Below are positions 2,757 to 48,047 of a stretch of 64,000 nucleotides of DNA, one piece after another. The stretch's first letter is position 1; every line of letters begins with the position of its first letter. The notes below the pieces were generated by a model, which was not told where the DNA came from, did not search any database, and was given only the letters and a program-made list of their open reading frames with translations. Location: IMG/VR virus record IMGVR_UViG_2974644787_000001, positions 1 through 64,000 of that record. The stretch is one strand, 5' to 3'. Both the position numbers and the translations under genes were made by a program. The stretch is from a virus (Duplodnaviria > Caudoviricetes).

Positions 2757-2790
2757 TTGATTATCCAATCACAGGCCATACTTGTCTTCA
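2757..2790 (+). promoter_or_regulatory. Late-type promoter copy 1: TTGATT-N17-ACTTGT, ATG at 2791
   Basis: Same hexamers and 17-bp spacing as nine other sites; 5-nt gap to ATG. Confidence 0.55.
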
Positions 2791-3639
2791 ATGGAAAAGA
2801 TTTTATATTCCGAAATAAAACTAATAAAACTCGATGACCTGGCTATCCACAAAGACAACTTTTTTCGTGATGTGGATCGCGAATCCCAAAAAGAATTCGA
2901 TGCGGATGTAGCAGCTCAAGGCGTGCAGGATCCGATAGTTTTAACAAAAGAAAAAAACGCCAATGGCCAATATGAAATTCTGAATGGCGCCAGAAGATTC
3001 CGCGCTTCCAAAAAAGCAGGTTTTAAGACAATCCCTGCAAAACATGTTTTATCTGAATTAACTGATATCGTTCGAGCCCGTGTAATGGTGGCCCAAAATG
3101 GTTTCGCAAAAGACTACACACCTGAAAATAGAAAACGCGTAATACTCATTTGGTTTGGAAAAGATGAAGTTCTTCAAGATGATAGGGGAGGTTCATACGG
3201 GAACAAATTCTCTTCCCGAAAGGAATTCAAAACACCTATACGCCGTAAAATAATGGATATGTTCGGCTGGCCACTTGGAACAGTTAACCGGGACCTAAAA
3301 GAACTTCGTGATGAACTCAAAAAGGATATGAAGAAGCCTCCGAAGGAATTACCCGAACTCAAAGATGGTGAGATCCGTTATTTCAATAATCGGATTTTAG
3401 ATTGGTGGGAAGCAGAAAAGCAAAAGATGAAGGTAAAAGCCGACTTAAGAAAAGAAATTGATTCTTATAAAGAGAGATTGAACAAAATTTCCAAAAAGCA
3501 ATCGGAACATAAAAAGGACTTTGGAAAGGTCGGTGGTTTTGATCACTACGTGAAATACGCGTTACAAAAGGATCCTGATATCAAGAAATTGAAAGATCTG
3601 AAGAAATTTATAGAAGAAAAGGAGATACCAAAAGGATGA
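2791..3639 (+). CDS. ParB/Srx N-terminal domain protein
   Basis: GVQDPIVL...YEILNGARRFRA is a ParB-N motif; basic, coiled-coil C-terminus. Confidence 0.8.
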   Translation: MEKILYSEIKLIKLDDLAIHKDNFFRDVDRESQKEFDADVAAQGVQDPIVLTKEKNANGQYEILNGARRFRASKKAGFKTIPAKHVLSELTDIVRARVMVAQNGFAKDYTPENRKRVILIWFGKDEVLQDDRGGSYGNKFSSRKEFKTPIRRKIMDMFGWPLGTVNRDLKELRDELKKDMKKPPKELPELKDGEIRYFNNRILDWWEAEKQKMKVKADLRKEIDSYKERLNKISKKQSEHKKDFGKVGGFDHYVKYALQKDPDIKKLKDLKKFIEEKEIPKG

Positions 3640-4196
3640 AACTCTATGAGTATTTTTTGCAACACGAGTTTCTTAAAAGATATAAAAGCTTTTTTGATGG
3701 TAAAATAAAACCTTATCAAAGCCAATTCAAAGGACTTTCTATAGAATTAGAGGAAGATTTGATAAGAGCATACTTTCTTAATCAAGAATCAATTATCTTA
3801 GAAGAAAATGAAGTAAGTAATGAGATTGTCTCCCTAGTGATATTTGTTTTAGATGATAAAATTTACCAAGCAGAAGGTTTTAAAGATCTTTTTGCCGAAG
3901 GTACTGGTTGGCGTCCGACTGGAATAGACAGCTTATTTTATAGAACAGATCCACCTAGACCTGAAAACCAAAATCGAAGAGAAATCTGTTTGGCTTATAA
4001 GAAAAATTTGAGATCCACTCCTCAATGGACCTGGTACGATGATGGTAAGCGAAAGGATAAATGGAAATTTACTAAAGAACCAAATAATACAATAAAATCA
4101 TTTGCAGCTAGTTTTTTTAACAAACCTATAAGCTTTTTAGAGATTCACCATGGCTTCGTTGATGCTCAAACAGGGAAACAAAAGTTATTTGGATAA
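3636..4196 (+). CDS. Hypothetical protein
   Basis: 186-aa ORF with ATGA coupling to the upstream gene. Confidence 0.6.
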   Translation: MKLYEYFLQHEFLKRYKSFFDGKIKPYQSQFKGLSIELEEDLIRAYFLNQESIILEENEVSNEIVSLVIFVLDDKIYQAEGFKDLFAEGTGWRPTGIDSLFYRTDPPRPENQNRREICLAYKKNLRSTPQWTWYDDGKRKDKWKFTKEPNNTIKSFAASFFNKPISFLEIHHGFVDAQTGKQKLFG

Positions 4197-4221
4197 GACT
4201 CCGGATAACTGAAAGCAAAAG

Positions 4222-5028
4222 TCATAGAAATCTAGCTATATTTGGGAACTGAGCAGCAACATTCATTGTAAGTAAAATGGCTGATCTATTTAAACAAACA
4301 AAAGTTTCATCGTTGCAAAAAGATTTTATAAAAGGCGAATAACTTGATGAAAATGCACGATGATTGGAATCAGGTATTGGAATTCCGCTCTCGGTCTTAA
4401 ATTGTAAAAGATCCCAGTAAATTAAATATTCTAGACAATTAAAAAACTTTAGTATGTGTTTTTTGGGTAAATTTAATCCTTCTTTCTTTAATGAGTCAGG
4501 TGTATTTAAAACCTTTACAGTATTCCCTACGGTTATTTGACAAAAAGCATCTAATAGTTCTGCACCAGTCTTATTTGAAAAACCGGGATGTTTTAACTCG
4601 CCTTCAATTTGAGAATACATTTGCATGTATTGAAGTAAATACTCTTCATTTTTTTGCCTAATAGAACTCTCTAGTTGATTGTATGCTATTTGAGTTTGCT
4701 TACCTGCTTCAGCGTTCGCTGTTTCTAATTCTTTACGATTAAGTCTTAACTCCTCCCTGTTTAAACCTAACTCTTCTCGCTGTAAATGAAGAGTGTACAA
4801 AATTGCAAGGAAAGTTAAAAAAGAAAAAATACTGCTTAAAGTCCCGCCTACAAAATCTCCGAACTGAGCCCAAAGTTCATTATCATCTGTTAAAAATGGG
4901 AAATTGTGCTTATAATATCCAAAAACAAATCCTATAATCGCAAAGCCAGATAAAGCCATTAGGATCAAAAATATTTTGAACCAATCTATCTTAGAAATGA
5001 AGTTAAGCAATTTATCCACTTTTCCCAT
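4222..5028 (-). CDS. Membrane protein resembling the putative phage abortive-infection family
   Basis: Two TM helices with WAQFGDFVGGTL followed by LQREEL..NREEL coiled coil, the usual N-terminus of this family. Confidence 0.65.
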   Translation of the reverse strand: MGKVDKLLNFISKIDWFKIFLILMALSGFAIIGFVFGYYKHNFPFLTDDNELWAQFGDFVGGTLSSIFSFLTFLAILYTLHLQREELGLNREELRLNRKELETANAEAGKQTQIAYNQLESSIRQKNEEYLLQYMQMYSQIEGELKHPGFSNKTGAELLDAFCQITVGNTVKVLNTPDSLKKEGLNLPKKHILKFFNCLEYLIYWDLLQFKTESGIPIPDSNHRAFSSSYSPFIKSFCNDETFVCLNRSAILLTMNVAAQFPNIARFL

Positions 5029-5170
5029 CCTTTTTTCGTTTTCTAATCGCTATCTGCAATTGGTATTCTTTTAACAATCGGATCATATATTTCTGCTGAG
5101 ATAACTCTCCGCGATCACTTTCAAGTAATTCATAAGATTCTTCATCTAAATCAATTGTAATCCGCGGCAT
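5012..5170 (-). CDS. Ribbon-helix-helix (CopG/Arc-like) regulator
   Basis: 52 aa, MPRITIDLDEESYELLE...LSQQKYMIRLLKEY; overlaps the Abi-like gene start; start moved from 5311. Confidence 0.65.
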   Translation of the reverse strand: MPRITIDLDEESYELLESDRGELSQQKYMIRLLKEYQLQIAIRKRKKDGKSG

Positions 5171-5179
5171 AAAGAGATA

Positions 5180-5198
5180 TTGCAGTAATTTACTGCAA
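5180..5198. promoter_or_regulatory. Palindromic operator TTGCAGTAA-T-TTACTGCAA, with a degenerate second copy at ~5226-5241
   Basis: Perfect 9-bp inverted repeat between the divergent RHH and terS genes. Confidence 0.7.
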
Positions 5199-5217
5199 AA
5201 GGTCAATGCGTTTTTCG

Positions 5218-5255
5218 TTGACAGACAGTATTTTACTGCAATTTGTCCCTTCCCG
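5218..5255 (+). promoter_or_regulatory. Late-type promoter copy 2: TTGACA-N17-ATTTGT-CCCTTCCCG-ATG (terS)
   Basis: Matches the conserved motif; no SD before the ATG. Confidence 0.75.
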
Positions 5256-5897
5256 ATGGCTCCAAAGAAGAAATCAAACAAGAAAATAGCACCTAACGGG
5301 CGTGCTAACAAGGGGAAATCGAATCGTAAGGGAAAAAATACAAACCCGACAAATCCTGAAAACCCGACCGAAAACGAATCACTAAGTCGGGAACCTCACG
5401 AGATTATTTCCGAGAGTAGGGGAGGGGAGGAATTCCGACCTATCCCAGAAAATAGATCTGTGGTTGTATATCGTGAGTTTCCAAACGTATCACCATTTCA
5501 GGAAGCGGGACTTGTTTTGTATCGATCAGGAGAATATCGAACTAACATCGGTCCAAGGATTGGAAGAGGAAGAGACTGGTTCGCATATCAATATAAATAC
5601 CATGAAGAGTTTCGAAAATATGCCGACCAAATCGAATTGGAGTTGTTAGCTGAGATTCGGGAAAATGCCGTTCCCGTGGCTGTGGGAATGTTTCGGATAC
5701 TTGAACAGATTGCGAATGGACAGTATGATTTTGAAGACAGGATCCAGGCAGGGAAATTAGCCTTTGCTTATTTAGAGAAGACTGGCCGTCTTCCAAAGTC
5801 CGATGACAAAGAGGAAGAAGACAAAAAGATAGAACAAGCAGTTCAGGCACTTTCAACTGCGCTTGCGGAAAAGTTTGGGAATGACCTTGCGATATGA
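5256..5897 (+). CDS. terS: Probable terminase small subunit
   Basis: Directly upstream of and overlapping terL; basic N-terminus, helical core. Confidence 0.65.
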   Translation: MAPKKKSNKKIAPNGRANKGKSNRKGKNTNPTNPENPTENESLSREPHEIISESRGGEEFRPIPENRSVVVYREFPNVSPFQEAGLVLYRSGEYRTNIGPRIGRGRDWFAYQYKYHEEFRKYADQIELELLAEIRENAVPVAVGMFRILEQIANGQYDFEDRIQAGKLAFAYLEKTGRLPKSDDKEEEDKKIEQAVQALSTALAEKFGNDLAI

Positions 5898-7585
5898 TCG
5901 AAATCGAGGAATTGCGTAAGGAGTTAAAGAGGTATCCGGCAAAAGTCGCGGAAATCTATCTAAAGAGATTTTTAGAAAAACGGAAAGCGCAAACTGGTGA
6001 GGGAAACCCAATTACCCTACGCCGAGTCAAGGCAATTGAAAAGTTTAGAGTTTTCATCGATACATATTTCTCGCATTATTTTTCAACCGAATTTGGAGAA
6101 CAACAATTAGAGCTGATCGAAGACATCCAATCCTTCGCAGGAAAGAAGGGTAGGGCTCCGATGAAAATTATTCGTGCGCTTTCCAGAGGATTTGGAAAAT
6201 CAACCATACTATCGTTATGTGGTGTAATGTGGCTCATACTTAGACGCGATTGGCATTTTGTCATAATGGTTTCAGCTTCACTCTCACAAGCAAAAGGTTT
6301 CCTCCAGAAGATTGTAGATGAGTGTGAGGACAACGAACTCCTGGTTTCTGACTTTCCAGAACTCCGACCAGCAAAAGACCAAAAAGGTCAAAATGTTGCA
6401 TGGAACGATTTGGACATCGTTTTCCGTGGTGGTGCCAGAATCATAGCAAAGGGATTCCTAAATGCGATTCGAGGAACTAGGTATAGGCAGTATCGTCCCG
6501 ATGCTCTCATTGTCGATGACCCCGATGAAGAGAAGGATGTCGAGTCAGACTCTAGGATGCAAAAGAAGTATCGGTGGTTCGACCGTGCAGCTTTGAAACT
6601 TGGGAACCAATGGGGCATCGATGTGATTTTGTCCTACACTACTCTTTCACCAAACTGCATAGGCGAAGTAATCTATAACGATACGAAAAAGTATTGGGAT
6701 TGGAACAGGAAAAAGTTTTCTGCAATCGGAGTTCGTCCGGATGGAAGCGAGTATTCTACTTGGGAAGCTGGCGCACCTTTATCGATGCTGATAAAGGAAA
6801 GGGAAGTAGACCCTATTTCTTTTGCGAGGGAAAAACAAAACGTAATTCTCGCAGAGATCGATCAGAAATTCAAAAGCAGAATCCAGCGATATACTTTTGT
6901 TCGTCCTGATTCATGGGAAGGATGGACCTTGGCAGTGGCCGTCGACTTATCGTTAGGTAAAACACAAAGGTCGGATTTCTCAGCGATCGTAGGAACAGGT
7001 CTTTCCCCTCAAGGAAAATTCTATGAAATCTATTCAGACATCGCGAGAAGGCCTCCAGATCAGATTCAAATTGACTTCGTAAAGGCTCTGAGAGCGTTTC
7101 CATGGGCTGTTGGGGGTATCGAGACTAGCGGAGGCCAAGAATACTTTCTGGATGCATTTAAGGGCCATTTAGAGGACTGGAACGAGCTCTGTGTGAATCC
7201 AGAAAACGGCCAAGGACTTACATGGAAAGATCAGATAACAATTCCAATAGTTGGGATCCCAAATAATGGAGATAAGATAAAGCGAATCGAAGGTGCTCTC
7301 CAAACAAAAATAGCAACGGGCCTTTTCTTACTTAGAGATGATTCTGATTTACTCTATGAGCAGTTAAACGAATTCCCATACAAGAAAATCGATGGACCCG
7401 ATGCTTTGGAAATGTCGCACCGATTGATCGTGGAACAAATGGGGAATATGATAAGTATAGTGACTCCTGAACAATTGGCGAAGGCAAGAGAACGGGAAGC
7501 AGGATTAAATCAGGATTCTCAAGTTACAATCGGAAAATCTATTCAGCAATTAAGGCGAGAGCAATTGAGAAGACGTGGGTATTAA
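5894..7585 (+). CDS. terL: Terminase large subunit
   Basis: Walker A SRGFGKST, Walker B LIVDDPD, RNase H-like AVDLS...DGPDALE. Confidence 0.95.
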   Translation: MIEIEELRKELKRYPAKVAEIYLKRFLEKRKAQTGEGNPITLRRVKAIEKFRVFIDTYFSHYFSTEFGEQQLELIEDIQSFAGKKGRAPMKIIRALSRGFGKSTILSLCGVMWLILRRDWHFVIMVSASLSQAKGFLQKIVDECEDNELLVSDFPELRPAKDQKGQNVAWNDLDIVFRGGARIIAKGFLNAIRGTRYRQYRPDALIVDDPDEEKDVESDSRMQKKYRWFDRAALKLGNQWGIDVILSYTTLSPNCIGEVIYNDTKKYWDWNRKKFSAIGVRPDGSEYSTWEAGAPLSMLIKEREVDPISFAREKQNVILAEIDQKFKSRIQRYTFVRPDSWEGWTLAVAVDLSLGKTQRSDFSAIVGTGLSPQGKFYEIYSDIARRPPDQIQIDFVKALRAFPWAVGGIETSGGQEYFLDAFKGHLEDWNELCVNPENGQGLTWKDQITIPIVGIPNNGDKIKRIEGALQTKIATGLFLLRDDSDLLYEQLNEFPYKKIDGPDALEMSHRLIVEQMGNMISIVTPEQLAKAREREAGLNQDSQVTIGKSIQQLRREQLRRRGY

Positions 7586-7608
7586 ATTGGGCTTTTATTC
7601 TTGTATTT

Positions 7609-7627
7609 GAAAAAGGTAACCTTTTTC
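7609..7627. repeat. Perfect inverted repeat GAAAAAGGT-A-ACCTTTTTC
   Basis: Read directly, just after the terL stop. Confidence 0.8.
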
Positions 7628-7843
7628 GTTTACGCTAGTGTTCTATGAAAAGGTACTTAAAGAGGTTCTTAATATGGTTCGTAAAAAAGGCCGTATTTTC
7701 ATTTACAGAGATTTAAAAACCCCTACTTTTTTCAATGACTGTAAATGGTTTTAGGTGTTAGGTGACTGGGTTGTAAATGAAATTCACCCACTTTTCCGTT
7801 TACTGCTTTTTGTATCCTAAAAAAGACCGGAATTTGATGTACA

Positions 7844-7872
7844 GACCATAGCGAACTTTTTCCGCTATGGTC
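7844..7872. repeat. Hairpin element GACCATAGCG-N9-CGCTATGGTC, copy 1
   Basis: Perfect 10-bp stem; 30 bp identical to 28527-28556. Confidence 0.9.
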
Positions 7873-8166
7873 GGAATTTGCTTCAAAATGTGCCTTTCTA
7901 TACAATGAGACATAATTCTAATGCGACATATTGTGTATTATCGGAAGTGCCATATTGCATCACGTAAGAATCTACTTTAGATTTTCAATATAAGTCGAAC
8001 TGAAAACAGAAGTACATAGACTGAATTAGATCACAATATCAGTTTTCCTTTACACTTGAAAATACGCAAAATTATCAATATAACAACTTTTGAATTCGGG
8101 TTTTCAAATCGTTTTCAAACGAATTTAAAAACTCCTAAAAACCCCTTCTCCGGTATTAAAAAACGA

Positions 8167-8203
8167 TTGCATTGATTGAGAACTAAAATCCTTGTCGCTT
8201 CCT
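8167..8203 (+). promoter_or_regulatory. Late-type promoter copy 3: TTGCAT-N17-CCTTGT-CGCTTCCT-ATG (portal)
   Basis: Conserved motif and spacing. Confidence 0.75.
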
Positions 8204-9874
8204 ATGCCACGTCCCAGAGGGAAGAACTACGATAAGAATCTTTTTTATAGAACTCCACCTGAGTTGAGGGAAAAAGTTGTTACTGGTAAAGCCAAGCCGG
8301 TAGATGAGCATACATCTTCGGATCCTCGGACTATGACCGTTGAGGAATTCCGTAAATCTACATTTTATTCCCATACAAGATCAACAGTTAAGCAAGCCAT
8401 CGATTTAAATAATCGAATGTTTAACTTGCTTGAAACAGCAAAGGATAAGAAGAATCCAATTTATTCCGATGACATGGTTGTTCCTGTACAACAAGGTGTG
8501 CGTGTTCGACCAATTTACAGAATCCCACTTGAGGATTTACGAAATATTTCTTATGCCTCCTCTCTCATTGGGGCCATTCACCAAATCATGGCCGATGACG
8601 TTTCAATGTACGCCAAGATCGGCGAAGACCCTGGGTTTGAATATAAGCTGAAACAAAAGGATATTTCCGCTTCGGATATGCAGCGGAAGGAAATGGCCGA
8701 ATTCGCAAATCGAGTTTTCCTAATGGGGGACAAATCGCAAGCAGATTGGCGAGAACGTGAACGACTCGGGGAAGTCCTTGAAATGGCAACTAGGGACACT
8801 CTTGCAATTGATGCAGTGGCATATTTGAGAACTTATAATAGAGCAGGTGAAATTTGTGACGTTCGTTATCTGGATCCCGCGACTATTTTCCGTGTAGATC
8901 CAAGGATAGGATACAAAGGTGATAAGAATATCACTCACGTTCAAATGGTGCATAACACGGTTACTGAGACGTATGAAGCAGGACGTATTGTTTATCGTCA
9001 CAAGAATAACCTTTCAGATATTCGGATGCGCGGATTTGGTTATTCGCCTATCGAATCTTGTTTGGTTGAGATCATGTCCCTACTCTTTACCATAAAACAT
9101 AATGCGGACAGATTCAATTCTAGGAATCCACCGAAAGCAATTATATCTTCCAAGAATGCAATTCCAAAATCTGATCAAGAGCGAATAGAACTCATTTGGG
9201 AAAACGCATTCTTTGGGCCGAGAGAAGGATTTAAAATCCCAATGATGTTTGGTGCAGGCGAGATCCAGGTCCACAACTTAGATGTATCGGATGATTTTGA
9301 ATTCGATAAAATGCTCCAAATGGTTTCCTCATTTATTATTGCAAGGCATGGAATTGATCCTGCGCAACTTGGACTTAGACTGAATCAATCCCAATCACTT
9401 GCAGAACCTTCTATGGATGGAAGACAGCATTTTTCTCGGGATCGAGCGCATGGTTCAATTATGAGCTTCCATCAAGATTGTCTTAATGAAGTTTTCGACC
9501 CGAGTGACGAAAGTCCAATCGCTTTGAGTTTCATTGGAGTGAAAACAGAGCAAGAGGATAAAAAAGCAGACCTTGAGGATAAACAATTCAAAGTTAGTCG
9601 GTCACTTGACGAGATACGCAAAGCAAATGATTTACCTACGATGAAAGAGGAAGCGGAAGATTATGTGGCTCGCGGAATTATAACGAAAGAACAGGGTAAG
9701 AAAATGGCCCGTCTCGGTCTCTTACGTGGAAATCAATTTTTCAGCCAAGAGTTTGGAAAAATTTTCTCAGATGAGGGACAAGCTCAAGGTGGTGAGGAGG
9801 AGCAATCTCCTATTGCAAGCGAGAGTCATGGAGAATTGCCGTGGGGTGAGGAAGATTTTCTACCTAGTACGTAG
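8204..9874 (+). CDS. Portal protein
   Basis: Follows terL; YLDPATIFR, RGFGYSPIE and RHGIDPAQLG motifs of phage portals; acidic tail. Confidence 0.9.
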   Translation: MPRPRGKNYDKNLFYRTPPELREKVVTGKAKPVDEHTSSDPRTMTVEEFRKSTFYSHTRSTVKQAIDLNNRMFNLLETAKDKKNPIYSDDMVVPVQQGVRVRPIYRIPLEDLRNISYASSLIGAIHQIMADDVSMYAKIGEDPGFEYKLKQKDISASDMQRKEMAEFANRVFLMGDKSQADWRERERLGEVLEMATRDTLAIDAVAYLRTYNRAGEICDVRYLDPATIFRVDPRIGYKGDKNITHVQMVHNTVTETYEAGRIVYRHKNNLSDIRMRGFGYSPIESCLVEIMSLLFTIKHNADRFNSRNPPKAIISSKNAIPKSDQERIELIWENAFFGPREGFKIPMMFGAGEIQVHNLDVSDDFEFDKMLQMVSSFIIARHGIDPAQLGLRLNQSQSLAEPSMDGRQHFSRDRAHGSIMSFHQDCLNEVFDPSDESPIALSFIGVKTEQEDKKADLEDKQFKVSRSLDEIRKANDLPTMKEEAEDYVARGIITKEQGKKMARLGLLRGNQFFSQEFGKIFSDEGQAQGGEEEQSPIASESHGELPWGEEDFLPST

Positions 9875-9900
9875 TTATAAAAAATTTAGAAGGACAGAAC

Positions 9901-10506
9901 ATGGAAAATAAAAACGAAACAAAAGAACAAGTGGCCGTGGAAGAAACACCGGAGACATTCACGGAAGAAGTAATGGAAGACTCTGAGAGCGTACAGACGG
10001 CCGTAGTGGAAGGCGTTGATACTGTTTCTGGGGATGGAACAGGTGAACCCCTTCCCGAATTTGATCAGGAAAATCCTTCCGATCTTAAAGATGGAAATGT
10101 ATTAAATCCACCTCCTGAAATTGAAGAAGAAAACTTGGGAGAGGAAGCCTCTGCAGAAGATCTAGGGATAGGTTTCATTCAAGGGGAAATTGATCACTTA
10201 AGTGAACAAGAGAAAACGGAATTGGGATACACGATTTCCGATATACTCGCTACTCCTAACCAATCGCAATCTATAATCGTATCCATGGTTATAAATGCTA
10301 TTTTGGATAAAGTTGGTAGTGTAAATCCAAATGCAATCGAGGCTCTTGGACAATTATCAACTCAAATTGTAGAACGCGCGGCCACTCAAGAATATCTCAC
10401 GCTTGTTTCCGAATTTGAGGGTGTTGTTTCTAGTGGATTGCCGAATGCTACTAAGTTGTCTTTATACTCACAGCAGTTAGATCAATTTGCAAAACGATTG
10501 GGGTAA
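9901..10506 (+). CDS. Acidic hypothetical head-module protein
   Basis: SD AAGGA; very Glu-rich N-terminal half. Confidence 0.65.
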   Translation: MENKNETKEQVAVEETPETFTEEVMEDSESVQTAVVEGVDTVSGDGTGEPLPEFDQENPSDLKDGNVLNPPPEIEEENLGEEASAEDLGIGFIQGEIDHLSEQEKTELGYTISDILATPNQSQSIIVSMVINAILDKVGSVNPNAIEALGQLSTQIVERAATQEYLTLVSEFEGVVSSGLPNATKLSLYSQQLDQFAKRLG

Positions 10507-11470
10507 AGAGTCCCCCTTTTTGCGAAGTAAAGCAGGAAGGGAATTTCAGCTAATTGTTGGGGATAGGCTCAAGTGGATAGAATATGTCGTGCTTGGTCCT
10601 GACTCCCCTACTATGTACGCATCAAAACTTTATTTTAAGAAAGGTGTATTAAATTGGGGAAAAAATCTTTTTGCCAGATTATTCCCTACTATTTCTTCGA
10701 AAACATTCCCAATAAAAATGCGACCGACTGTTATAAGCATTGGAAAAGATACAGTTCACGAAGATTTGCCGGATCCTCAAAACCTGGAATTCGATGAATG
10801 GTTGTTTGATTATTTGGAAACAGACTGGAACCCTACTTATAAAGCAATAGGGGAATCAGGAACATTGCTCGGATACCTTTCTGGTTATTTGACAGGTGAA
10901 CTAAAACTTCCAATGGAAACTGTCACTGAAATGGGGATCCAAGATTATGACAAAGCCTTAAAGCATAAACTTGGGTTTGGAATTGAGGAAATTTTCGAAA
11001 AAGAAAAGATAGTCTCGAAAAAAGAAGTCACAAGGCTTGCGACTGAATACGCAAAGAAACACGGAGCGGAATGGCTTGCGATATACAAGCGAGATGACCA
11101 GGGTGAAATAATCTATGGAGAAGATGGGCAACCTATAAGAGGTGGAAAGCCTTATGAGTACCTAACACAAATGTGGCGCGATATGATCGTTACAGCAATT
11201 CAAGAAGGGAAGACGCTTGAACAAATGCAAAGCGATTTTGCTTATCCAGATCTAATGGACCTAGTTGATAAAGGGACAATTTCACCTGAAACTTATTTGG
11301 AATTACTCAATGGGAAAGAATCCGAATTGCTTCAATTGCGTTTGAATAGAAATTTTCGACGATTTGCCTGGACAGAGGCAAGTATGGCATTCAATGCTGG
11401 AAGAATCCGTGCTATGAGTGAAATGGGGATCAATTATGGTATATTCCGAAAAGGGCAAAGAGTGATGTAA
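10487..11470 (+). CDS. MuF-like minor head protein, N-terminal part only
   Basis: Ends NRNFRRFAWTEASMAFNAGRI...GINY (MuF R-x-A-x-TE...N-x-G motif) but lacks the C-x-x-C...HP-x-C-x-C half. Confidence 0.65.
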   Translation: MQNDWGKESPFLRSKAGREFQLIVGDRLKWIEYVVLGPDSPTMYASKLYFKKGVLNWGKNLFARLFPTISSKTFPIKMRPTVISIGKDTVHEDLPDPQNLEFDEWLFDYLETDWNPTYKAIGESGTLLGYLSGYLTGELKLPMETVTEMGIQDYDKALKHKLGFGIEEIFEKEKIVSKKEVTRLATEYAKKHGAEWLAIYKRDDQGEIIYGEDGQPIRGGKPYEYLTQMWRDMIVTAIQEGKTLEQMQSDFAYPDLMDLVDKGTISPETYLELLNGKESELLQLRLNRNFRRFAWTEASMAFNAGRIRAMSEMGINYGIFRKGQRVM

Positions 11471-13085: not shown

Positions 13086-13098
13086 AAACGAAAAAAGC

Positions 13099-38204: not shown

Positions 38205-38210
38205 TGTTAG

Positions 38211-38239: not shown

Positions 38240-38279
38240 TCCCATTCTATAGTCCAATCCGAATCGGAATCCGTTAAGA

Positions 38280-38734: not shown

Positions 38735-39880
38735 TTATTTATTAGGTTCAATCAGGAATTGCTTCACTTTATGCATTCTAAGCTCATATTTTGCTTTTTT
38801 ATAAAGATCTCCTTTGATTGATACCTTTTTTGAATCTTTGTGTGCTCCTAGTGCAGAATTGTAATCTATTTCGCTTAATTCAATAATTATTTCGGTTTTT
38901 CTGTTTTTGCTGGGAAAGATTTCATTTAATTCTGAAGTTTTTATAGTTCCAGAAATTGTAACTGTCCTTTTCTGGTCTTTGAATGTCCTGAATAATAAAT
39001 CTTTGTTTTTATCTTGAGTAGCAATGACATATCCTTCTATGATTACATCTAATATTGGATTCTGCTCTTTTAAAGTTATAGAGGCTTGTTCTAAAATTTC
39101 ATAGTTTTCCGATCTTAATATATATGGTTTAATAATATTTAGATTTCGTTTTTTATATAAAAATGATGCATCAAAAGTAATAGTATTGGTATCTAATTTT
39201 CTCGCTATATTCGCAAGAGCGTCACACATGTTTGCGTTAAAACCATTTTGATAATTATTAACAATGATATTTTCATTCTTTTCTTTAATTGCATACGTTA
39301 GATTTTGAAATCCTGTAAATATACGATCGATAACTTTTTCTTCGATTGTAATTTCGTCATCTTCAAAAAGATAACTTTCTTCTTTGCCTAGTTCAACCGA
39401 AAAACCAAAACTTCCTTTAAATGTATGTGGAAAGGATAGCTTTGATACTGTATCTTTTGCTTTTTTCGGTGCTTCCAAAAAGTAAGCAACTGGATTAAAT
39501 TCAAAAGAGTATCCATAGAGAAGAAGAAAATATAGGTTGTTGATTGTTATTCGAGTTAAATTTAGTGGTATTTTATTAGTGTCTTGATTTTTATTAATTA
39601 AGGCTTTGATAACTGCAAAATATACGTCGATAATCTCCTTTGCAATCTCATCGATACTTTTTTTATAAATTATTGAGAGGGTTTTAAATACAGAATTTAT
39701 TCTATCATTATAATCTTCATAATTATTAGAGCGAGGGAAGACTAAGGTTACTGGTTTATTTAGCTTCTTAGGTGCTTCAAAAAAGAAAATACCCGTATTT
39801 GAGTGAGGTATTATTTTCCATCCTAATTTTTCAAGATATGATTTGATTTTATCCGCGGGTAAATTGTTGAAATTAAGCAT
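38735..39880 (-). CDS. Uncharacterised protein, partner of the DUF4365-like gene; candidate defence component
   Basis: AT-rich; HicA-like N-terminus (SYLEKLGWK) and OB-like C-terminus (ALGAHKDSKKVSIKGDL). Confidence 0.6.
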   Translation of the reverse strand: MLNFNNLPADKIKSYLEKLGWKIIPHSNTGIFFFEAPKKLNKPVTLVFPRSNNYEDYNDRINSVFKTLSIIYKKSIDEIAKEIIDVYFAVIKALINKNQDTNKIPLNLTRITINNLYFLLLYGYSFEFNPVAYFLEAPKKAKDTVSKLSFPHTFKGSFGFSVELGKEESYLFEDDEITIEEKVIDRIFTGFQNLTYAIKEKNENIIVNNYQNGFNANMCDALANIARKLDTNTITFDASFLYKKRNLNIIKPYILRSENYEILEQASITLKEQNPILDVIIEGYVIATQDKNKDLLFRTFKDQKRTVTISGTIKTSELNEIFPSKNRKTEIIIELSEIDYNSALGAHKDSKKVSIKGDLYKKAKYELRMHKVKQFLIEPNK

Positions 39881-39882
39881 AA

Positions 39883-40413
39883 TTAAAATTCACCAATTTG
39901 AAGTTTTTCTACTAGATTCGAAAGTTCTTCTGCTGTGAGTAAGTTTTTACGTGGGATATGAAGAGTTATCTTACTATCTGTTGGTTTTCTTTCTTTATCT
40001 GTTATATCATACCAGTAGCAAGCTCGGTTAAGAATTAAGCGATCTTCGCTTACATTTAACCAACTTTTTTCATCTTCAGGTAAGCAAAATGCGATTAGAA
40101 TTTGTCGGAGACTTCTATTATTATTTAATGTAACAAATTTGTTATAAGCTTTGGTAGTAATAGTAAAGGTAATAAATTCGTCTTTGAAAACATAATTTGA
40201 AGATGCTTTTAGCTGAAAGCAAAGAGGATATCCAATTTCAGTTATTTCATTTTTTTGATTTTCATTCAATTCAACAAAAACTTTTGAAAATCTACCATCA
40301 ATTCCATAATCAAAATTTGCATCATTTATGCGAATTAATAGCCCAGCTTTTCCTGCGATGGCCTGTACATAGGATATACTTAGGCTTTCTTTTCTATGGT
40401 TTTCAGTAATCAT
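39883..40413 (-). CDS. DUF4365-like PD-(D/E)XK-fold protein
   Basis: KESLSISYVQAIA...DYGIDG...FQLKAS motif. Confidence 0.75.
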   Translation of the reverse strand: MITENHRKESLSISYVQAIAGKAGLLIRINDANFDYGIDGRFSKVFVELNENQKNEITEIGYPLCFQLKASSNYVFKDEFITFTITTKAYNKFVTLNNNRSLRQILIAFCLPEDEKSWLNVSEDRLILNRACYWYDITDKERKPTDSKITLHIPRKNLLTAEELSNLVEKLQIGEF

Positions 40414-40634
40414 TTCTTGAAAGCCTCACAGATGCATTTTTTATATAAGACTGAAAAAATCATTAAAATTTTTTAAATGGACTTTCTAGTGTTATCGTAA
40501 AGTCAAAGTATATTTTTTGATTAGATTTTTTAAAAATGCACATAACTCATATTACTAACACAAAACACCTTTTTGAAGAGAAAGGCCAAACTCTAGAGAT
40601 TTTTTCTTTTCCAAACAATTACTATAACGATTAT

Positions 40635-43418
40635 CTAATGCGCCTTACTTCTTCCTTTTTTTGATGGGCTTTTTATCTGCGAAGTAAGAGTATTTGTGTA
40701 TTTCTCATACAGTTCAAAAAGGAACTCAACCCTCTCGGATTCTGATTGGAATGGCTTTGACCGGTAAACCTTATCCACTGCTTTGTCCAGTTTGTTATGC
40801 GCATCCCGAAGGACTTTCGGCATGGTTAGTGGGTCGTAGAGATCCGAAAGCGATGATTCAGGGAACTGCGCTCTGGCGTCCAAAACTGATAGAGCGAGCG
40901 ATTCAATTTCTTTCTTTTGTTTGTCGGATGGATTTTCTGGCCAAGGGAAATTATTGTAAGACAATTTCACTGAGTATCTTATATCGCTTTTTAATCTACC
41001 AGATGTTAAAGAAGTCCAATTATTATGAATTCGACTGGTCAAGAATGCAAATGTATATAAGTCGCAATTGGGGACTATCTGTAAATCATTTGCGGCAATT
41101 ACATTGGAACTTAGAAAACCGATTGGCATATAATCTCTTTTTTCAGATGAAGTTCTGGGTATTGCCAAATAATTACCACTTTTTGGTTGTCTGATTTCAG
41201 TAAAAAGATAAGGTATCTGAGCTTTTCTTTGAGTAGGTTTTTTCTTACTTGCAAGTCGAAACTCTTTTACCTTCAATAAAACGTCATGAATAAATTTACT
41301 CTTTCTTATTTCTTCTAAGTCTGCATTTTCCAGCCAGAGGCAATAACGAAACTCTTTATTTAGAAATCCCACTGCACCAAGGTACAATCTAAAATACTTC
41401 TCTGCAATTTTGTCATTTTTTATTATTTCAATGTATTCTTCAGGTGTTACCAAAAAGTTACCGCCGTCAGCAGGTATGCTTCCATTTAAAATAGGTGGGA
41501 CCTTACAAAGTGGTTTCAATCTAGGCATGATTATTGTGTTATTCCCGTTATGAAGATACGGAGAAATATTTTTCACTTTAATTAAAATTGGATCTTTTTT
41601 AATACCATCGCTATATACAAATAAACTTTTCATAGATTGATTTAGATGTTTACTAAATCCCACGATTACACAATGAACTGCAGCATTTCTTGCTGCCTCA
41701 TTACTCCATTGGAAAGTTTGATGAGCAAAAGTAATTACGATTCCATTATTTAGCATCCATTTCCAAAAAAAAGGGATATGCTCTCCTTGTGAAATTGAGT
41801 TTGTAGAAACGAATGCTATTTTTATTTCATGATTTTGTATGTAATTGATTGCTCTAATATACCAACCGCAAACATAATCTAAACTTCCGTAATTTCTTAA
41901 TTGGGAACATGCAAAAGCCATATCCGATTTTTGGGAATCACTTTGTAATTTAGATCCTGCAAAAGGAGGATTCCCCAAAATATAAGTCAATTCGTCAGGT
42001 TTTATAATTTCTTCCCATTTTAACCGGAGAGCATTCCCTATCACTATCGTTGGTGCTTTCTTAAGTGGCAACCTAACATAATATTCACCAAACTCTTTCC
42101 CCATTTCCACATTCATTAAGTGGTCCATGATCCAAATTGCCGTTTTGGCAATTTGCGCCGGGAATTCTTCGATTTCAATTCCATATAGATGATCAACATC
42201 GAGACTATCGAGAGTTTGAATAGATAACTCAAGACCAAGGCCTTTCAGCTTTCTGATCTCTTTTAATAAATTGATTTCTAGCCGTCGAAGCTCTCGGTAA
42301 GATAAAATTAAAAAGTTTCCACATCCACAGGCTGGATCAAGGATTTTGATTTTCCTTATTCTTGCCAGAAGGTCTTCGAGACCTTTGATGTTCTTCTTTA
42401 AATTTAAGCTTTTAAATTCTTCGAGATGCTCATCGAGGAAAAGACCATGAATAGTTTTTAAGATATTCTTTTCGCTTGTGTAATGCGCTCCAAGCTCTCG
42501 CCTTTCGACTTTGCTCATTACATATTGAAATAGACTTCCGAAGATTGCTGGGCTAACAAGAGCCCAATTGAATTCGCAAGCTTGAATCAAAATATCGCGC
42601 AACTTCTGGTCGAATTGTGCAAATGGGATCGCTTCCTCAAATAATTGACCATTAACATAAGGAAATTTTGCAAGATCTTCATCTAGGTTCGCTTGCCTTT
42701 GTTCCGTAGGAGTATTGAGCACTTGGAAAAATTGAGCAATCCATAGCCCTAAGTCACTCCCATCTAATTTGGTTCGTTCTTTTAAGAAGAAAAGAAAATC
42801 ATCTTTATTGAAAATACCGGTATCATCGGCGAAGAAACAAAACATTAAGCGAACAAGCATTAGTTTCAATGGATGTTCCTTAAATCCATTTCTTTCTAGT
42901 TCATCATGCAATTTACCCATGAGCTCAGCTGCTTTGATATTAACAGGATCTTCATCTTTATATTCTCTTTGTTCATATCCTAATAGAAAATTAAAGCGTT
43001 GAAGATGGTCGAGAAGATCGATGATTTTGAATTCTACAGATTTTTCTTGGTCTATAAAATTTACCAATCGAAGTCTTTCAAAATCGCAAACACAAATATA
43101 GCTTGGAAGTTCTTCATCGGGTATACCTCCTGTCAAACAGTAGTCCAATGCTTGCTTGTATGCTTTATCTAAATCCTCTCCTTTACTTTTTTGCTCTATT
43201 AGGATAGTCTTTGGCCAGAAATAGTCTATAAATCCAGTCGTTTGTCTTAGAGTTTTTGCTCTCTCTTCAAAGATCCCAACCTTTTTAGCACTAATACCCC
43301 ATATATTAAAGAAATCTCGCCAGAATAATTGAGACTCCCCTTTTTCGTATTTGTCATCTTTATGGTCGTGAATAAATGAAATTGCTCTAGATTTGATTTC
43401 GTTAGGTGATAATGCCAT
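40635..43418 (-). CDS. MmeI-like type IIL restriction-modification enzyme
   Basis: N-terminal FWRDFF...LIEQKS nuclease; PAIFGSLFQ, LDPACGCGNF and GNPPF MTase motifs; C-terminal GRLKSDIRYS...YNNFPWP. Confidence 0.92.
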   Translation of the reverse strand: MALSPNEIKSRAISFIHDHKDDKYEKGESQLFWRDFFNIWGISAKKVGIFEERAKTLRQTTGFIDYFWPKTILIEQKSKGEDLDKAYKQALDYCLTGGIPDEELPSYICVCDFERLRLVNFIDQEKSVEFKIIDLLDHLQRFNFLLGYEQREYKDEDPVNIKAAELMGKLHDELERNGFKEHPLKLMLVRLMFCFFADDTGIFNKDDFLFFLKERTKLDGSDLGLWIAQFFQVLNTPTEQRQANLDEDLAKFPYVNGQLFEEAIPFAQFDQKLRDILIQACEFNWALVSPAIFGSLFQYVMSKVERRELGAHYTSEKNILKTIHGLFLDEHLEEFKSLNLKKNIKGLEDLLARIRKIKILDPACGCGNFLILSYRELRRLEINLLKEIRKLKGLGLELSIQTLDSLDVDHLYGIEIEEFPAQIAKTAIWIMDHLMNVEMGKEFGEYYVRLPLKKAPTIVIGNALRLKWEEIIKPDELTYILGNPPFAGSKLQSDSQKSDMAFACSQLRNYGSLDYVCGWYIRAINYIQNHEIKIAFVSTNSISQGEHIPFFWKWMLNNGIVITFAHQTFQWSNEAARNAAVHCVIVGFSKHLNQSMKSLFVYSDGIKKDPILIKVKNISPYLHNGNNTIIMPRLKPLCKVPPILNGSIPADGGNFLVTPEEYIEIIKNDKIAEKYFRLYLGAVGFLNKEFRYCLWLENADLEEIRKSKFIHDVLLKVKEFRLASKKKPTQRKAQIPYLFTEIRQPKSGNYLAIPRTSSEKRDYMPIGFLSSNVIAANDLQIVPNCDLYTFAFLTSRIHNNWTSLTSGRLKSDIRYSVKLSYNNFPWPENPSDKQKKEIESLALSVLDARAQFPESSLSDLYDPLTMPKVLRDAHNKLDKAVDKVYRSKPFQSESERVEFLFELYEKYTNTLTSQIKSPSKKGRSKAH

Positions 43419-43501
43419 CGGTATGCAAAATTAGAATATAGGGAACCAGTGAGTCAACCAATTTGAATAATGCTGATGCTCTCTTTATTGATTCTTTTCC
43501 G

Positions 43502-43538
43502 TTGACAAAATCAAAATAACAAGAATTTGTCCCTTCCC
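43502..43538 (+). promoter_or_regulatory. Late-type promoter copy 8: TTGACA-N17-ATTTGT-CCCTTCCC-ATG
   Basis: Conserved motif and spacing. Confidence 0.8.
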
Positions 43539-44228
43539 ATGCCAGAATTCCCATCATATGGAAGACAATCGAAAGTTGCGTTTGCGCCACCTGGACTTGC
43601 GCAACCAAGTATTATGAATGGTTTGGAACTCGGTGAAATTGATTCTCTCAGCGGTGGACTCATGAAATACCGAGCCGACATTCGACTTTTTAATGGACAG
43701 ATTCTGAAGAAAGTGCGTCTCCCAGGTCCTTACATCGGTCTTTTAGGGTTTCTTTCGGGATTCAAATTTGGATACAGAGAGGGACAGATGGTCCTTGTTG
43801 GATTTCTCCAAAATCGTAGAGACAATCCTATCGTCATTCAGGTGTATCCTTTTGCAGCACAGACAAAAGGAAAAAGCTCGCTAATCAAACATTCTTCACA
43901 ATTCGATTCTGAAGAAACATCTGTAGGCCACGAATCTGGGCATAGAACAAAATGGGACAAAGACAAAGTTCTCTTTAAAGATAAATTAGATACGACAAGA
44001 GTCCAAATCGATCACACGATACCACCAATCCTTAACTCTCTGGAAAAAGCTGCGCAAGGCGAAACTTTGAAATCAATTCTAGAAGAAATCTGTGACGAAA
44101 TCACCAAACTCACTGTTCAGTGTACTGCCCCCGGGACTTCGAGCTTACCCCCAGATAATGCAGCCAAGTTTCTTGTGATTAAAGGAAAATTAAACACTAT
44201 CCTTTCCGAGGTTTTAAAACACTACTAA
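43539..44228 (+). CDS. Baseplate central spike (gpV/gp45-like)
   Basis: OB-fold with GYREGQMVLVGFLQ...PIVI, followed by beta-strands and a PGTSSLPPDN tip. Confidence 0.7.
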   Translation: MPEFPSYGRQSKVAFAPPGLAQPSIMNGLELGEIDSLSGGLMKYRADIRLFNGQILKKVRLPGPYIGLLGFLSGFKFGYREGQMVLVGFLQNRRDNPIVIQVYPFAAQTKGKSSLIKHSSQFDSEETSVGHESGHRTKWDKDKVLFKDKLDTTRVQIDHTIPPILNSLEKAAQGETLKSILEEICDEITKLTVQCTAPGTSSLPPDNAAKFLVIKGKLNTILSEVLKHY

Positions 44229-46110: not shown

Positions 46111-47951
46111 TCAATTAAGCCTCTAACTCTTCTTAACTTAAATGATTTGAAATCGCCAATTGGATTCACCTTCACAATGTATGAGATTGCATCGGAATCT
46201 ATTGAGAATTCCACAATATCGGCAGTTTGGACACCCAAGTCAGATTGTATATCGTCGAGAATTTTTTTCGGTATAACCAAATTGAGAAAATCGTCAGGCA
46301 CAGATCCTGGTTTGGGAAGAGCTCCGATATCAGGATGCATTGGGATCTGACCAGGAAGAATTCGCATTTTATCAAGAAGCCCATCAACTAAACAGTCGAT
46401 CCCTTTTGACGTGCCTATATCTCCCCCTTTGGTCTCGATATCTCGATCGGCTTTTAATGCTATGTCCTCACCAAACAAGAATTCTTCGAGTAATTCCTGA
46501 GTTTTTGAATTGGATAAATTGTTAAAAAGAAATCTTTCAAGATAAACTCCCGTATCCCTTTGGTTATATGTCACACTTGTTGGAACCTTAATTGACATTC
46601 CAATTATTTCTTCATTTGATTTTCCAATGAGTCTCGGGTCATTTTGGATGAGTAAATCTATTCTATCTGGAGAACCAAAGTATTTCCTCGCAAGAATTTC
46701 AAGTGTCTCACCCGGTTTTACTTTAATGTATGAGGAATTCTGAGCCAAATTTTCATTATTTGCGAGCATTAAGATGGTAGAAATAGTCCCAAGTGCAATC
46801 TGAATATTTAGAACAGATAAAACAGCGGGATCTACAGCTGCTTCAATTTCGAAATCACTTACTGCTCCAGATGTAAGAACATTATCTAAAACTGAATTCG
46901 GAATTTCTTGCGCGTCAATCTCGGATTGTGAACTTGTTGTGCTTACTGGCACGATCGGTATATCAAGAGCTCCAATAGATGGGACGGTTTGATTCGGGAA
47001 TAGAGATTGCATGAGTAATTCTTGAAACTGATTTGTCTTTTTCTTTAGTGGCCCACCTGCTTTGGAGATTGCGCGAAGTGATTCTTTGTTTGTCGCTTCG
47101 AAAGATTTTAGAGCATCTTTCATTCCTTCTGCTAAATTGGCAATATCGGAATATAGTTCAGTAATCCCTTTCAGGTAACTAAGCGGCCCAGATAAATCAG
47201 AAAGAAATTCTTCAAAAGTAACCAATACACCTGAAACCATTTGTTTAAGGTCTGGGAGTGGGGCTCGCCGATTCTTACCTCGGCCAGACTCATCTTTTAC
47301 TCCGATGAAATTTAGATTCCAATACCAAGTATGGGGATCTTCTTTTGATTGTGATATTTTGAATCCATTCTTATCGAAAGCAACTTCCCAATGCGAATCA
47401 CGGTCATAGTCATGAAAAATCATCTGGATCTCTTCCGAGTTAAAAGATTCCGTACCAAATGCAGATGCCACACTATATATATCAAAAGCATTTGGATAAA
47501 ATGAACTGAAAGTCGGAACTCTAGATTTGAATTTTTCTTTTTCGCGAGCTTCCTGCATAAGGTATACCAAATCAAAGAAGTCTAAATAACCTGCCTTTTT
47601 AACGGGATTTAAATCTTCCAATTCTCCAAGAAGTGCATTCCCTACGCCTGCCAATCCTGGCATCGGTTTCCTAACTGGTTTCCCCGTATAATGCGCGTAT
47701 ATTTCTCCAGATAAGTTTATTTGGGAAATTCCATTCCCATTATCGACTACTTGCGCACCATTGTATGTCGGTGTCACAGAAACATTATAAGTGAATGTAT
47801 GATCCATTCGGGAAAGGCCAAGTAGAAAGAAATACTCTCCCAAAGAGATATTAGGTCCGTATTTGACACGGGATAGAAATTCTACTGAATAAGCACCTGT
47901 GGCAGAATAACCACCAGTGTTATTTGTTACGCTCGTCGCAAGAGATCCCAT
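46107..47951 (-). CDS. Tail-tube initiator / LysM / gp25-like fusion protein
   Basis: LysM YIKVKPGETLEILARKYFGSP; C-terminal GDIGTSKGID...PMHPDIG gp25-like domain. Confidence 0.7.
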   Translation of the reverse strand: MGSLATSVTNNTGGYSATGAYSVEFLSRVKYGPNISLGEYFFLLGLSRMDHTFTYNVSVTPTYNGAQVVDNGNGISQINLSGEIYAHYTGKPVRKPMPGLAGVGNALLGELEDLNPVKKAGYLDFFDLVYLMQEAREKEKFKSRVPTFSSFYPNAFDIYSVASAFGTESFNSEEIQMIFHDYDRDSHWEVAFDKNGFKISQSKEDPHTWYWNLNFIGVKDESGRGKNRRAPLPDLKQMVSGVLVTFEEFLSDLSGPLSYLKGITELYSDIANLAEGMKDALKSFEATNKESLRAISKAGGPLKKKTNQFQELLMQSLFPNQTVPSIGALDIPIVPVSTTSSQSEIDAQEIPNSVLDNVLTSGAVSDFEIEAAVDPAVLSVLNIQIALGTISTILMLANNENLAQNSSYIKVKPGETLEILARKYFGSPDRIDLLIQNDPRLIGKSNEEIIGMSIKVPTSVTYNQRDTGVYLERFLFNNLSNSKTQELLEEFLFGEDIALKADRDIETKGGDIGTSKGIDCLVDGLLDKMRILPGQIPMHPDIGALPKPGSVPDDFLNLVIPKKILDDIQSDLGVQTADIVEFSIDSDAISYIVKVNPIGDFKSFKLRRVRGLIE

Positions 47952-47990
47952 TGGGGAATGGACAAAGCATCCATTCCCTCAGAAAATCAA
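47952..47990 (-). promoter_or_regulatory. Late-type promoter copy 9 (minus strand): TTGATT-N17-CTTTGT-CCATTCCCCA-ATG
   Basis: Back-to-back with copy 10. Confidence 0.7.
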
Positions 47991-48010
47991 CTCATTTACA
48001 TCAAAAATGC

Positions 48011-48047
48011 TTGCAAAATGAGTCCATTACTTCCCTTGTCACTTCCC
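48011..48047 (+). promoter_or_regulatory. Late-type promoter copy 10: TTGCAA-N17-CCTTGT-CACTTCCC-ATG
   Basis: Conserved motif and spacing. Confidence 0.8.

Follow-up and report, generated by a model that had tools for sequence, protein, structure and literature searches.

How are the virion and packaging genes of a phage-plasmid switched on when the sequences in front of them carry a sigma70-like -35 box and no TATAAT-like -10 box? This question is raised by the window analysed here, that is, the first 64,000 bases of the 73,623-bp virus record IMGVR_UViG_2974644787_000001 (GC content 38.6%), of which the last 9.6 kb were scanned as well. The record matches the LE1 type of phage-plasmid, as judged from its nearest named relatives by large terminase (TerL), which are LE1-like Leptospira phages and plasmids, and from its gene content, which agrees. 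LE1 is a temperate phage-plasmid of Leptospira biflexa with 73,622 bp and 38.5% GC (PMC6078989), and the record is called LE1 below. A preliminary description, made from the letters alone, had listed ten copies of a promoter-like element in the window, with an ATG lacking a Shine-Dalgarno sequence (SD) shortly behind most of them. We consider these sites to be, with fair probability, the late promoters of LE1-type leptophages, mostly giving leaderless mRNAs, a reading that is based on sequence comparison.

A spaced motif at the heads of virion and packaging operons

The pattern TTGNNN-N17-MYTTGTC gave 11 matches on the two strands of the window, compared with 0.90 ± 0.93 in 100 dinucleotide shuffles (maximum 4), and a looser regular expression gave 23 versus 4.9 in LE1 and 26 versus 5.6 in pLiSL40, an L. 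interrogans plasmid (NZ_CP092745.1) syntenic with LE1. When a position weight matrix (PWM) was built from eight core sites (5218, 8167, 13099, 21144, 28571, 32716, 43502, and 48011), these scored 29–55 bits, followed by the minus-strand site at 47990 with 13.9 bits, and the best score in shuffled genomes was 7.8 bits. All ten copies listed previously were present at their coordinates, and the distances from hexamer to ATG were as claimed (8 nucleotides (nt) at six sites, 9 at 5218, 5 at 2757, and 10 at 47990 on the minus strand). The count of ten holds for eight strong sites and a good one, 47990 (minus strand); the tenth, 2757, scored below 12 bits and is doubtful, having no counterpart before the ParB_N genes of pLiSL40 or of the relative G005. 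The eleventh match, 45652 on the plus strand, is antisense within a gene for a protein of 502 amino acids (aa) and is probably a chance match. The remaining 9.6 kb of the record, beyond the window, had no copies.

The sites stand at the start of gene strings and share their orientation on both strands. The terS–terL pair begins behind 5206–5258 (plus strand), where a T-tract is followed by TTGACA (5218–5223), N17, ATTTGTC (5241–5247), 8 nt, and ATG 5256 without an SD; the small-terminase call at this position is based on a weak PHROG match. The portal operon (Phage_portal) begins behind 8155–8206 (plus), with an A-tract, TTGCAT (8167–8172), N17, CCTTGTC (8190–8196), 7 nt, and ATG 8204. Similar plus-strand sites head the gene of a 1971-aa methylase/SNF2-helicase protein (13087–13138; TTGAAT 13099–13104, CCTTGTC 13122–13128, ATG 13136), the operon of an 859-aa ParB-domain giant protein (28559–28610; TTGACT 28571–28576, CCTTGTC 28594–28600, ATG 28608), the operon encoding an 83-aa protein, tail sheath (phrog_279), tube, and tape measure (32704–32755; TTGATA 32716–32721, CCTTGTC 32739–32745, ATG 32753), which has the top PWM score, and a two-gene operon for proteins of 229 and 125 aa (43490–43541; TTGACA 43502–43507, ATTTGTC 43525–43531, ATG 43539). 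Two sites lie back to back, one heading the baseplate J operon (Baseplate_J; 47999–48050, plus; TTGCAA 48011–48016, CCTTGTC 48034–48040, ATG 48048) and the other, which is weaker, heading the 614-aa and 502-aa baseplate/tail genes (baseplate protein phrog_975; 47949–48002, minus; TTGATT 47990–47985, CTTTGTC 47967–47961, 9 nt, ATG 47951). The capsid operon, with the major head protein (phrog_752) downstream, is headed by a leadered member at 21132–21215 (plus; TTGCAA 21144–21149, CCTTGTC 21167–21173); as described previously, an A occupies the equivalent position, 21181, and the gene starts at ATG 21213 behind its own SD, GAGG 21205–21208. The doubtful site precedes a ParB_N-domain gene (2757–2793, plus), with TTGATT, N17, ACTTGTC, only 4 nt, and ATG 2791.

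The motif thus heads the terS/terL, portal, giant-protein, capsid, sheath, baseplate, and tail modules, and it was not found in the partition (parA), replication, immunity, or MmeI restriction-modification modules of LE1. This distribution supports the earlier proposal of a distinct promoter-like class limited to virion and packaging operons. Reading by eye, we found TAnnnT-type boxes in the immunity region of LE1 and upstream of parA, and, in the restriction-modification island, a TATATT box before the gene of a 927-aa protein and TTGACC-N17-AATAAT at 38239 (minus), the canonical promoter that the preliminary description had placed before a moron gene, here the 188-aa gene of the island. Lytic phage LE4, which grows in the same host as LE1, has no intergenic copies of the motif, and its intergenic regions, also read by eye, carry TTTACA-N17-TAnAnT followed by AGGGAGAAAA SD leaders. 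Because LE4 shows sigma70-like hexamers and SD leaders in this host, the motif class is not the host default.

The surroundings of the motif are also promoter-like. A run of at least four A or T residues lies within 12 nt upstream of the TTG at 22 of 25 sites, by our count, which suggests an UP-like element and, with it, the multisubunit polymerase of the host. Structures consisting of a hairpin and a T-run precede some of the sites, such as the terminator-like hairpin GACCATAGCG..CGCTATGGTC-TTT before 28571.

Two further observations were made near the sites. A perfect palindrome, TTGCAGTAA-T-TTACTGCAA, lies at 5180–5198, 20 nt upstream of the terS -35, and a third TTACTGCAA half-site (5233–5241) lies within the terS promoter spacer and touches the TTGTC core; the sole other exact copy in the genome is at 30886, in coding DNA, and extra copies occur upstream of the terS site of the close relative G002. 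This palindrome could be an operator particular to the packaging operon or a TerS/pac recognition site. In addition, a motif-like site with an N18 spacer at 20375 (minus) is directed into a GC-rich stretch.

Start codons and conservation among relatives

No SD-like word was found in the 20 nt upstream of the start codon at seven of the eight core sites and at 47990 (minus), the eighth core site being the leadered 21144. Internal late genes mostly have AGGA or GGAG 9–16 nt upstream, and the first genes behind the motif do not. The starts given by the open reading frame (ORF) finder at TTG 8192, GTG 13118, and TTG 28596, 32741, and 43527 lie inside the motif, as had been pointed out. The start codon directly behind the motif can be regarded as the real one because the N-termini of orthologs align from residue 1 or 2 and in-frame stops are located 9–36 nt upstream in most cases, so that the earlier claim of genuine starts without an SD was borne out. 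The portal N-terminus MPRPRGKNY, for example, aligns with VARPRGTNY of pLiSL40 from residue 1 and has an in-frame stop 27 nt upstream; the N-terminus MGSLATSVT of the 614-aa protein is identical in pLiSL40; and the 1971-aa gene has an in-frame stop 24 nt upstream of ATG 13136.

The gap from GTC to the start codon is 7 nt at the core sites of LE1 (8 at terS), mostly 8 nt in pLiSL40 (9 at the giant gene), and 7–10 nt at the leaderless sites of G005. RNA polymerase favours purines for initiation, and pyrimidines almost always fill the last bases ahead of the start codon, so that the purine of the start codon would be the natural initiating nucleotide. The capsid operon is leadered with an SD in LE1, pLiSL40, and G005. 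Because the same core heads such SD-leadered genes (the capsid operon and, in pLiSL40, a 620-aa gene), it would be a transcription signal and not a translation signal.

Leaderless mRNAs are frequent in Leptospira, with about 440 such genes in L. interrogans (PMC5243855). Like these documented mRNAs and those of phage repressor genes, the predicted LE1 transcripts have the start codon at the 5' end and no SD; LE1 differs in that the leaderless layout goes together with a non-canonical -10 and recurs systematically in the first genes of the putative late operons.

Conservation was examined in LE1, in G001 and G002 (IMG/VR; TerL 90% aa identity), in pLiSL40 (TerL 56%), and in G005–G012 (IMG/VR; major capsid protein (MCP) 65–72%). 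G001 and G002 have eight copies each, on one strand only, with none for the reversed-pattern control; at their terS sites, TTGAC and TTGTC are kept, and in G002, the spacer is unrelated to that of LE1 with spacing and start codon kept. In pLiSL40, the same architecture was found at nine positions, namely, before terS, portal, the SNF2 giant gene and the gene next to it, capsid, sheath, the two-gene operon, baseplate J, and the divergent 620-aa gene. Examples are TTGACA-N17-TTTTGTC-8 nt-GTG at terS, TTGCAA-N17-ATTTGTC-9 nt-ATG at the ortholog of the 1971-aa giant gene, and TTGATT-N17-TCTTGTC-8 nt-ATG at baseplate J; the ortholog of the two-gene operon at 43502 has an N18 spacer, and that of the 47990 (minus) gene, which encodes 620 aa, is the leadered one with an SD. 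The sheath-operon sites of pLiSL40, G006, and G008 are orthologous to 32716 and differ from it in the spacer. Seven of the eight MCP-matched records, that is, all except G005, had 8–15 matches versus 0–4 for reversed controls, located at the operon heads already named and differing in their spacers.

G005 carries a variant of the motif, having seven TCGTC-type sites (control 0) and no TTGTC-type site; TCGTC occurs at background level in LE1 (3 versus 2). The core is CGTC at seven of nine operon heads in G005, with TGTC at the giant-gene site and AGTC at muF2, and the heads other than the TCGTC type read ATATGTC, TTCCGTC, and ACAGTC. The G005 sites include TTGCAA-N17-TTTCGTC-7 nt-ATG at portal, TTGACT-N17-TTCCGTC-9 nt-ATG at the ortholog of the 859-aa giant gene, TTGATT-N17-..ACAGTC-7 nt-ATG at that of the two-gene operon, TTGCTT-N17-TTTCGTC-8 nt-GTG at baseplate J, and a TCGTC-type site at the ortholog of the 47990 (minus) gene. 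As a result, what is invariant in the three deep lineages is TTG and GTC at a fixed spacing, with the base before GTC usually T or C; TTG is followed by A or C at all 28 operon-head sites read in LE1, pLiSL40, and G005, and several of them read TTGACA. Two details of the preliminary description have to be revised accordingly. The -10 hexamer (C/A)(C/T)TTGT was misplaced, because the three lineages keep only T/C-GTC and the hexamer omits the key C, and the pyrimidine tract CACTTCCC, which had been taken as part of the signal, is a feature of the LE1 lineage that is kept in neither pLiSL40 nor G005.

Plasmid prophages of L. kirschneri are included among the relatives by TerL match only. When the strict pattern was run against 185,579 species genomes, a single match came up, which is put down to chance; the matches discarded as chance were one on a Nitrospira contig and one inside a coding ORF with a GC content of 47%. 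Leptospira phages of the LbrZ_5399 type have 51–54% identity to LE1 in TerL and 25–35% in other virion proteins, and the motif is not enriched in LbrZ_5399 (KF114879; 8 matches versus 5.5 expected). In that phage, CCGAT[AT][AT] is enriched instead (85 versus 47 expected), with boxes upstream of its portal gene and of genes nearby. The boxes are similar to nCCGATAA, which is present at -15 to -8 of many mapped start sites in L. interrogans (PMC5243855, supplementary table 7). LbrZ_5399 may have a different, host-type late promoter. A side observation in pLiSL40 is an internal duplication of about 16 kb (~30–46 kb and 47–62 kb), comprising tail and head genes with their promoters, which could be real or an assembly artefact.

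The reader of the sites and alternative explanations

Each site is composed of an A/T-tract resembling an UP element, a sigma70-like -35 (TTGMWW), a fixed 17-bp gap, nY-T-(T/C)-GTC in place of TATAAT, 7–9 pyrimidine-rich bases, and ATG or GTG. In the proposed mechanism, the upstream half would recruit the multisubunit RNA polymerase of the host, and opening at the GTC core would depend on a specificity factor that is not the housekeeping sigma. Transcription would start at, or within 1–2 nt of, the purine of the start codon, where the pyrimidine run meets its first purine. As a result, most virion and packaging operons would have a leaderless mRNA for their first gene; in the capsid operon and, in some lineages, the operon of the 614-aa protein, a normal SD leader would follow the same core. 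The core T/C-GTC resembles the -10 of extracytoplasmic function (ECF) sigma factors. The reader is most likely phage-encoded and yet unrecognisable by sequence: given that the sites are late promoters, a phage factor has about an even chance of being the reader, a host ECF-like sigma is clearly less likely, and host sigma70 alone is improbable.

The search for such a factor covered LE1 and five relatives. Six-frame searches with Sigma70_r2 (Pfam) gave no matches in LE1, G005, G006, G008, G011, or pLiSL40, and the r4- and r4_2-like matches in these elements were limited to an XRE repressor-like protein and the N-terminal helix-turn-helix (HTH) of the gene at the TerS position; an N-terminal HTH is usual in small terminases. 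Pfam and PHROGs searches with about 70 LE1 proteins found no activator or sigma, and PHROG matches in transcription regulation were limited to a weak repressor-like HTH. The preliminary description had stated that no sigma-like gene was recognisable in the window, and this is true of the rest of the genome and of the five relatives as well. A single-subunit or virion RNA polymerase was also considered, and no such family was found among the Pfam and PHROG matches of the giant proteins, a search outside which the 885-aa protein (25878–28535) lies. By tblastn outside the late region, LE1 and pLiSL40 share only the partition and Rep genes, a single-strand annealing protein (SSAP)/SbcCD module, small HTH proteins, the XRE protein, and ImmA with its neighbour, and ImmA is the only gene common to LE1, pLiSL40, and G005, the last being 87% complete. 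PDB sequence searches with four shared proteins gave nothing informative.

One candidate was noted for its position. A small gene of about 115 aa (phrog_21632) at 20734–21090 on the minus strand is divergent from the 21144 site, about 55 nt away, and is called by gene callers on other contigs. It is kept in pLiSL40 (47%), in G005 (37%), and in every motif-bearing lineage examined, and LbrZ_5399 does not have it; in G005 and the records of pLiSL40 type, the motif variant of the respective lineage stands before it, followed by a leaderless start codon. The AlphaFold2 model of the protein (predicted local distance difference test score 76) is a three-helix bundle with a long C-terminal helix, for which Foldseek gave no matches at E ≤ 0.001, VIA gave generic helical bundles only (Z ≤ 6.9), and the ESM Atlas gave nothing. 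The product is a weak candidate for the late regulator, many late genes having the same phyletic pattern. A more specific version of the idea, which we put forward tentatively and think rather unlikely as a whole, is that LE1-type phages encode a reader without a sigma-family signature, such as this small helical product, that would keep the host -35 and UP contacts and swap TATAAT recognition for T/C-GTC ("-10 appropriation" or a minimal sigma of a new kind), giving precisely leaderless late mRNAs.

Several points weigh against reading the sites as late promoters served by a phage factor. The start sites and the timing are inferred, and the sigma-family and PHROG searches described above were negative. 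The geometry is at the edge for sigma70-family holoenzymes, with the first T of TTG 37–38 nt before the purine of the start codon, and the 20-nt gap from TTGNNN to TGTC exceeds the 15–17 of ECF promoters. The sharing of ImmA alone weakens the idea of a conserved early phage factor. Moreover, there may be a host regulon with the core motif, the core-motif comparison having covered phage and plasmid elements.

An unlikely alternative is that a host ECF-like alternative sigma common to saprophytic and pathogenic Leptospira reads the sites and that the phage times expression by activating or releasing it. The invariant T/C-GTC, with TGTC in LE1 and pLiSL40 and CGTC in G005, is a hallmark of the ECF -10 (consensus as cited in PMC7708080). 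One and the same motif occurs in phages of the two host species, L. biflexa and L. interrogans, phages that have few early genes in common. Leptospira encodes 5–11 ECF sigmas (PMC6941012), and no phage sigma was found. However, the -35 is TTGMWW and contains no AAC, the distance to GTC is 3–5 bp longer than in ECF promoters, and the six elements searched have no cognate sigma gene nearby. The only characterised leptospiral ECF motif, that of L. interrogans sigmaX (TGRCAC-N15/16-TCGTT), differs, and sigmaX homologues are reported from infectious species only and are missing from saprophytes (PMC7708080), so that sigmaX was rejected as the reader of LE1 sites on spacing, on the -10, and on the saprophytic nature of L. 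biflexa. Furthermore, LE4 in the same host and the LbrZ_5399-type phages do not have the motif, the strict pattern is absent from the species genomes scanned, and the switch to CGTC at most sites of one phage lineage would be easier with a phage-borne reader. Like the promoters of E. coli sigmaE and L. interrogans sigmaX, LE1 sites have a short GTC-centred -10 core without TATAAT, a partly overlapping -35 (TGACA and TGRCAC), and the format of a dedicated regulon of about ten promoters; they differ in the lack of AAC in the -35, the longer gap between blocks, and the predicted leaderless transcripts.

It is less probable still that host sigma70 holoenzyme works unaided through the -35 and the UP-like tract, T/C-GTC being the operator through which a phage repressor or activator sets the timing. 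The -35 is indeed close to TTGACA, the A/T-tract is present at most sites, and the 17-bp gap leads to a hexamer ending in T; in addition, the -10 requirements of Leptospira are poorly known, since MEME gave no clear sigma70 consensus in the L. interrogans start-site study (PMC5243855). No plausible -10 hexamer has an A at its second position, however, and TAnnnT was not found: the sequence at N17 is nYTTGT, without an A at position 2 in any site. A simple sigma70 scan of window positions 1–20000 did not list 5218, 8167, or 13099, and one listed pair begins inside the doubtful 2757 site. By eye, boxes of the TAnnnT type were read in LE4 and, in LE1, before parA and in the immunity region; CCGATAA-type boxes are present at many mapped start sites of the host; and a 5-bp asymmetric core would be a poor operator and differs from the CCTATAT repeats of the immunity region. 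Finally, the sites might not be promoters at all but an RNA-level signal for translation initiation or processing in longer transcripts, or DNA sites for packaging or partition proteins such as ParB-like ones. The tract touches start codons without an SD, and the phage has at least four ParB-domain proteins; nevertheless, we regard this as very improbable, because a -35-like TTG at a fixed spacing 25 nt upstream would be meaningless for an RNA signal beside AUG, the tract from GTC to AUG is not kept between lineages, two members have an ordinary SD leader behind them, some sites lie behind terminator-like hairpins, and the sites match gene orientation on both strands.

Other promoter classes were compared and rejected. 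The sigmaA promoter of Bacteroidota consists of -33 TTTG and -7 TAnnTTTG about 19–21 bp apart; LE1, by contrast, has a spirochaete as host, the sites do not conserve TA and have a G-to-G distance of 25 and not 27–29, and G005 has CGTC. The consensus sequences of sigma54, sigma28, and sigma32 did not fit in a by-eye comparison, and TTGTCA as the -35 of a downstream promoter has no conserved -10 17 nt further.

Coming back to late promoters read by a phage factor, the closest analogue of LE1 in lifestyle and layout is P1. The late promoters of P1, which depend on Lpa, keep the sigma70 -10 and have a conserved inverted repeat near -22 in place of the -35. P1 is likewise a plasmid prophage with many dispersed late promoters heading virion and packaging operons, and both have what we take to be a DarB-like giant methylase-helicase virion protein; in contrast, LE1 keeps the -35 and replaces the -10, and its spacers are unrelated, with no conserved repeat. 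In the late systems of T4 (gp55/gp33), SPO1 (gp34), and phiEco32 (gp36), late genes are driven by promoters that are private to the phage and closed to the housekeeping sigma, as is proposed for LE1. These systems have an identifiable sigma-family protein, and T4 late promoters lack a -35, whereas LE1 keeps a sigma70-type -35 and an UP-like tract and has no detectable sigma-like protein.

Gene content of the elements and meaning of the motif

In LE1, the partition and replication genes encode ParA, ParB-like, and Rep-like proteins, and the virion and packaging genes encode small and large terminases, portal, major head protein, tail sheath, and baseplate J. The 1971-aa giant protein has methylase and SNF2 helicase domains, the 859-aa giant protein has a ParB domain, as do at least four proteins in all, and a 316-aa protein has a weak adaptor/neck match. 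LE1 also has HTH genes of 85 and 100 aa. In the stretch of 1.1 kb from the adaptor-like gene to the capsid operon (20000–21130), two conserved ORFs overlap on opposite strands, one of 184 aa on the plus strand (phrog_18945) and one of about 115 aa on the minus strand (phrog_21632). A minus-strand island of five genes (37638–43418), between the tape-measure gene and the two-gene late operon, is not in pLiSL40 or G005; its first gene encodes the 927-aa MmeI-family protein, a type IIL restriction-modification enzyme in which the five Pfam domains of MmeI are all present.

The last 9.6 kb of the record contains the XRE repressor-like gene, ImmA, and SbcCD-like genes. A 333-aa early protein (68919–69920 of the full record, minus strand) is encoded next to the SbcC- and SbcD-like genes and is kept in pLiSL40. 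None of its 30 nearest ESM Atlas clusters has a common Pfam family, and the nearest named clusters hold Rad52, Sak, or RecT annealing domains in a minority of their members, which is a lead only; together with the SbcCD-like genes, this protein probably forms a recombination module. In the immunity region (70820–70925 of the full record), which separates the leftward early operon (54.7–70.8 kb) from the 126-aa XRE gene, three CCTATAT/ATATAGG repeats lie over TATATT-type -10 boxes. The ATG of the XRE gene is only 4–5 nt after a -10-like box, and its mRNA may be another leaderless transcript, in this case from an ordinary promoter.

Phage late promoter classes are a known kind, and the putative variant in LE1 is new, phage-private, and deeply conserved; a literature search, not covering the original 2005 LE1 genome paper, found no description of the motif or of LE1 promoters. 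The transcription signals of Leptospira are poorly defined, the sole genome-wide start-site study having given no general promoter consensus, and the motif adds a promoter-like class that is sharp in definition and conserved over deep lineages; with about ten copies per element, it occurs in LE1 of L. biflexa and in plasmid prophages of L. interrogans, those of L. kirschneri being included on a TerL match alone. Several annotated gene starts are corrected, and the predicted start sites are directly testable. The reader would be either a host ECF-like sigma hijacked with an unusual geometry or a phage factor without sigma homology that redirects RNA polymerase, and the natural difference between TGTC and CGTC lineages provides a built-in test of specificity. 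For a genus with few genetic tools, the sites could also become a source of expression signals that depend tightly on the phage.

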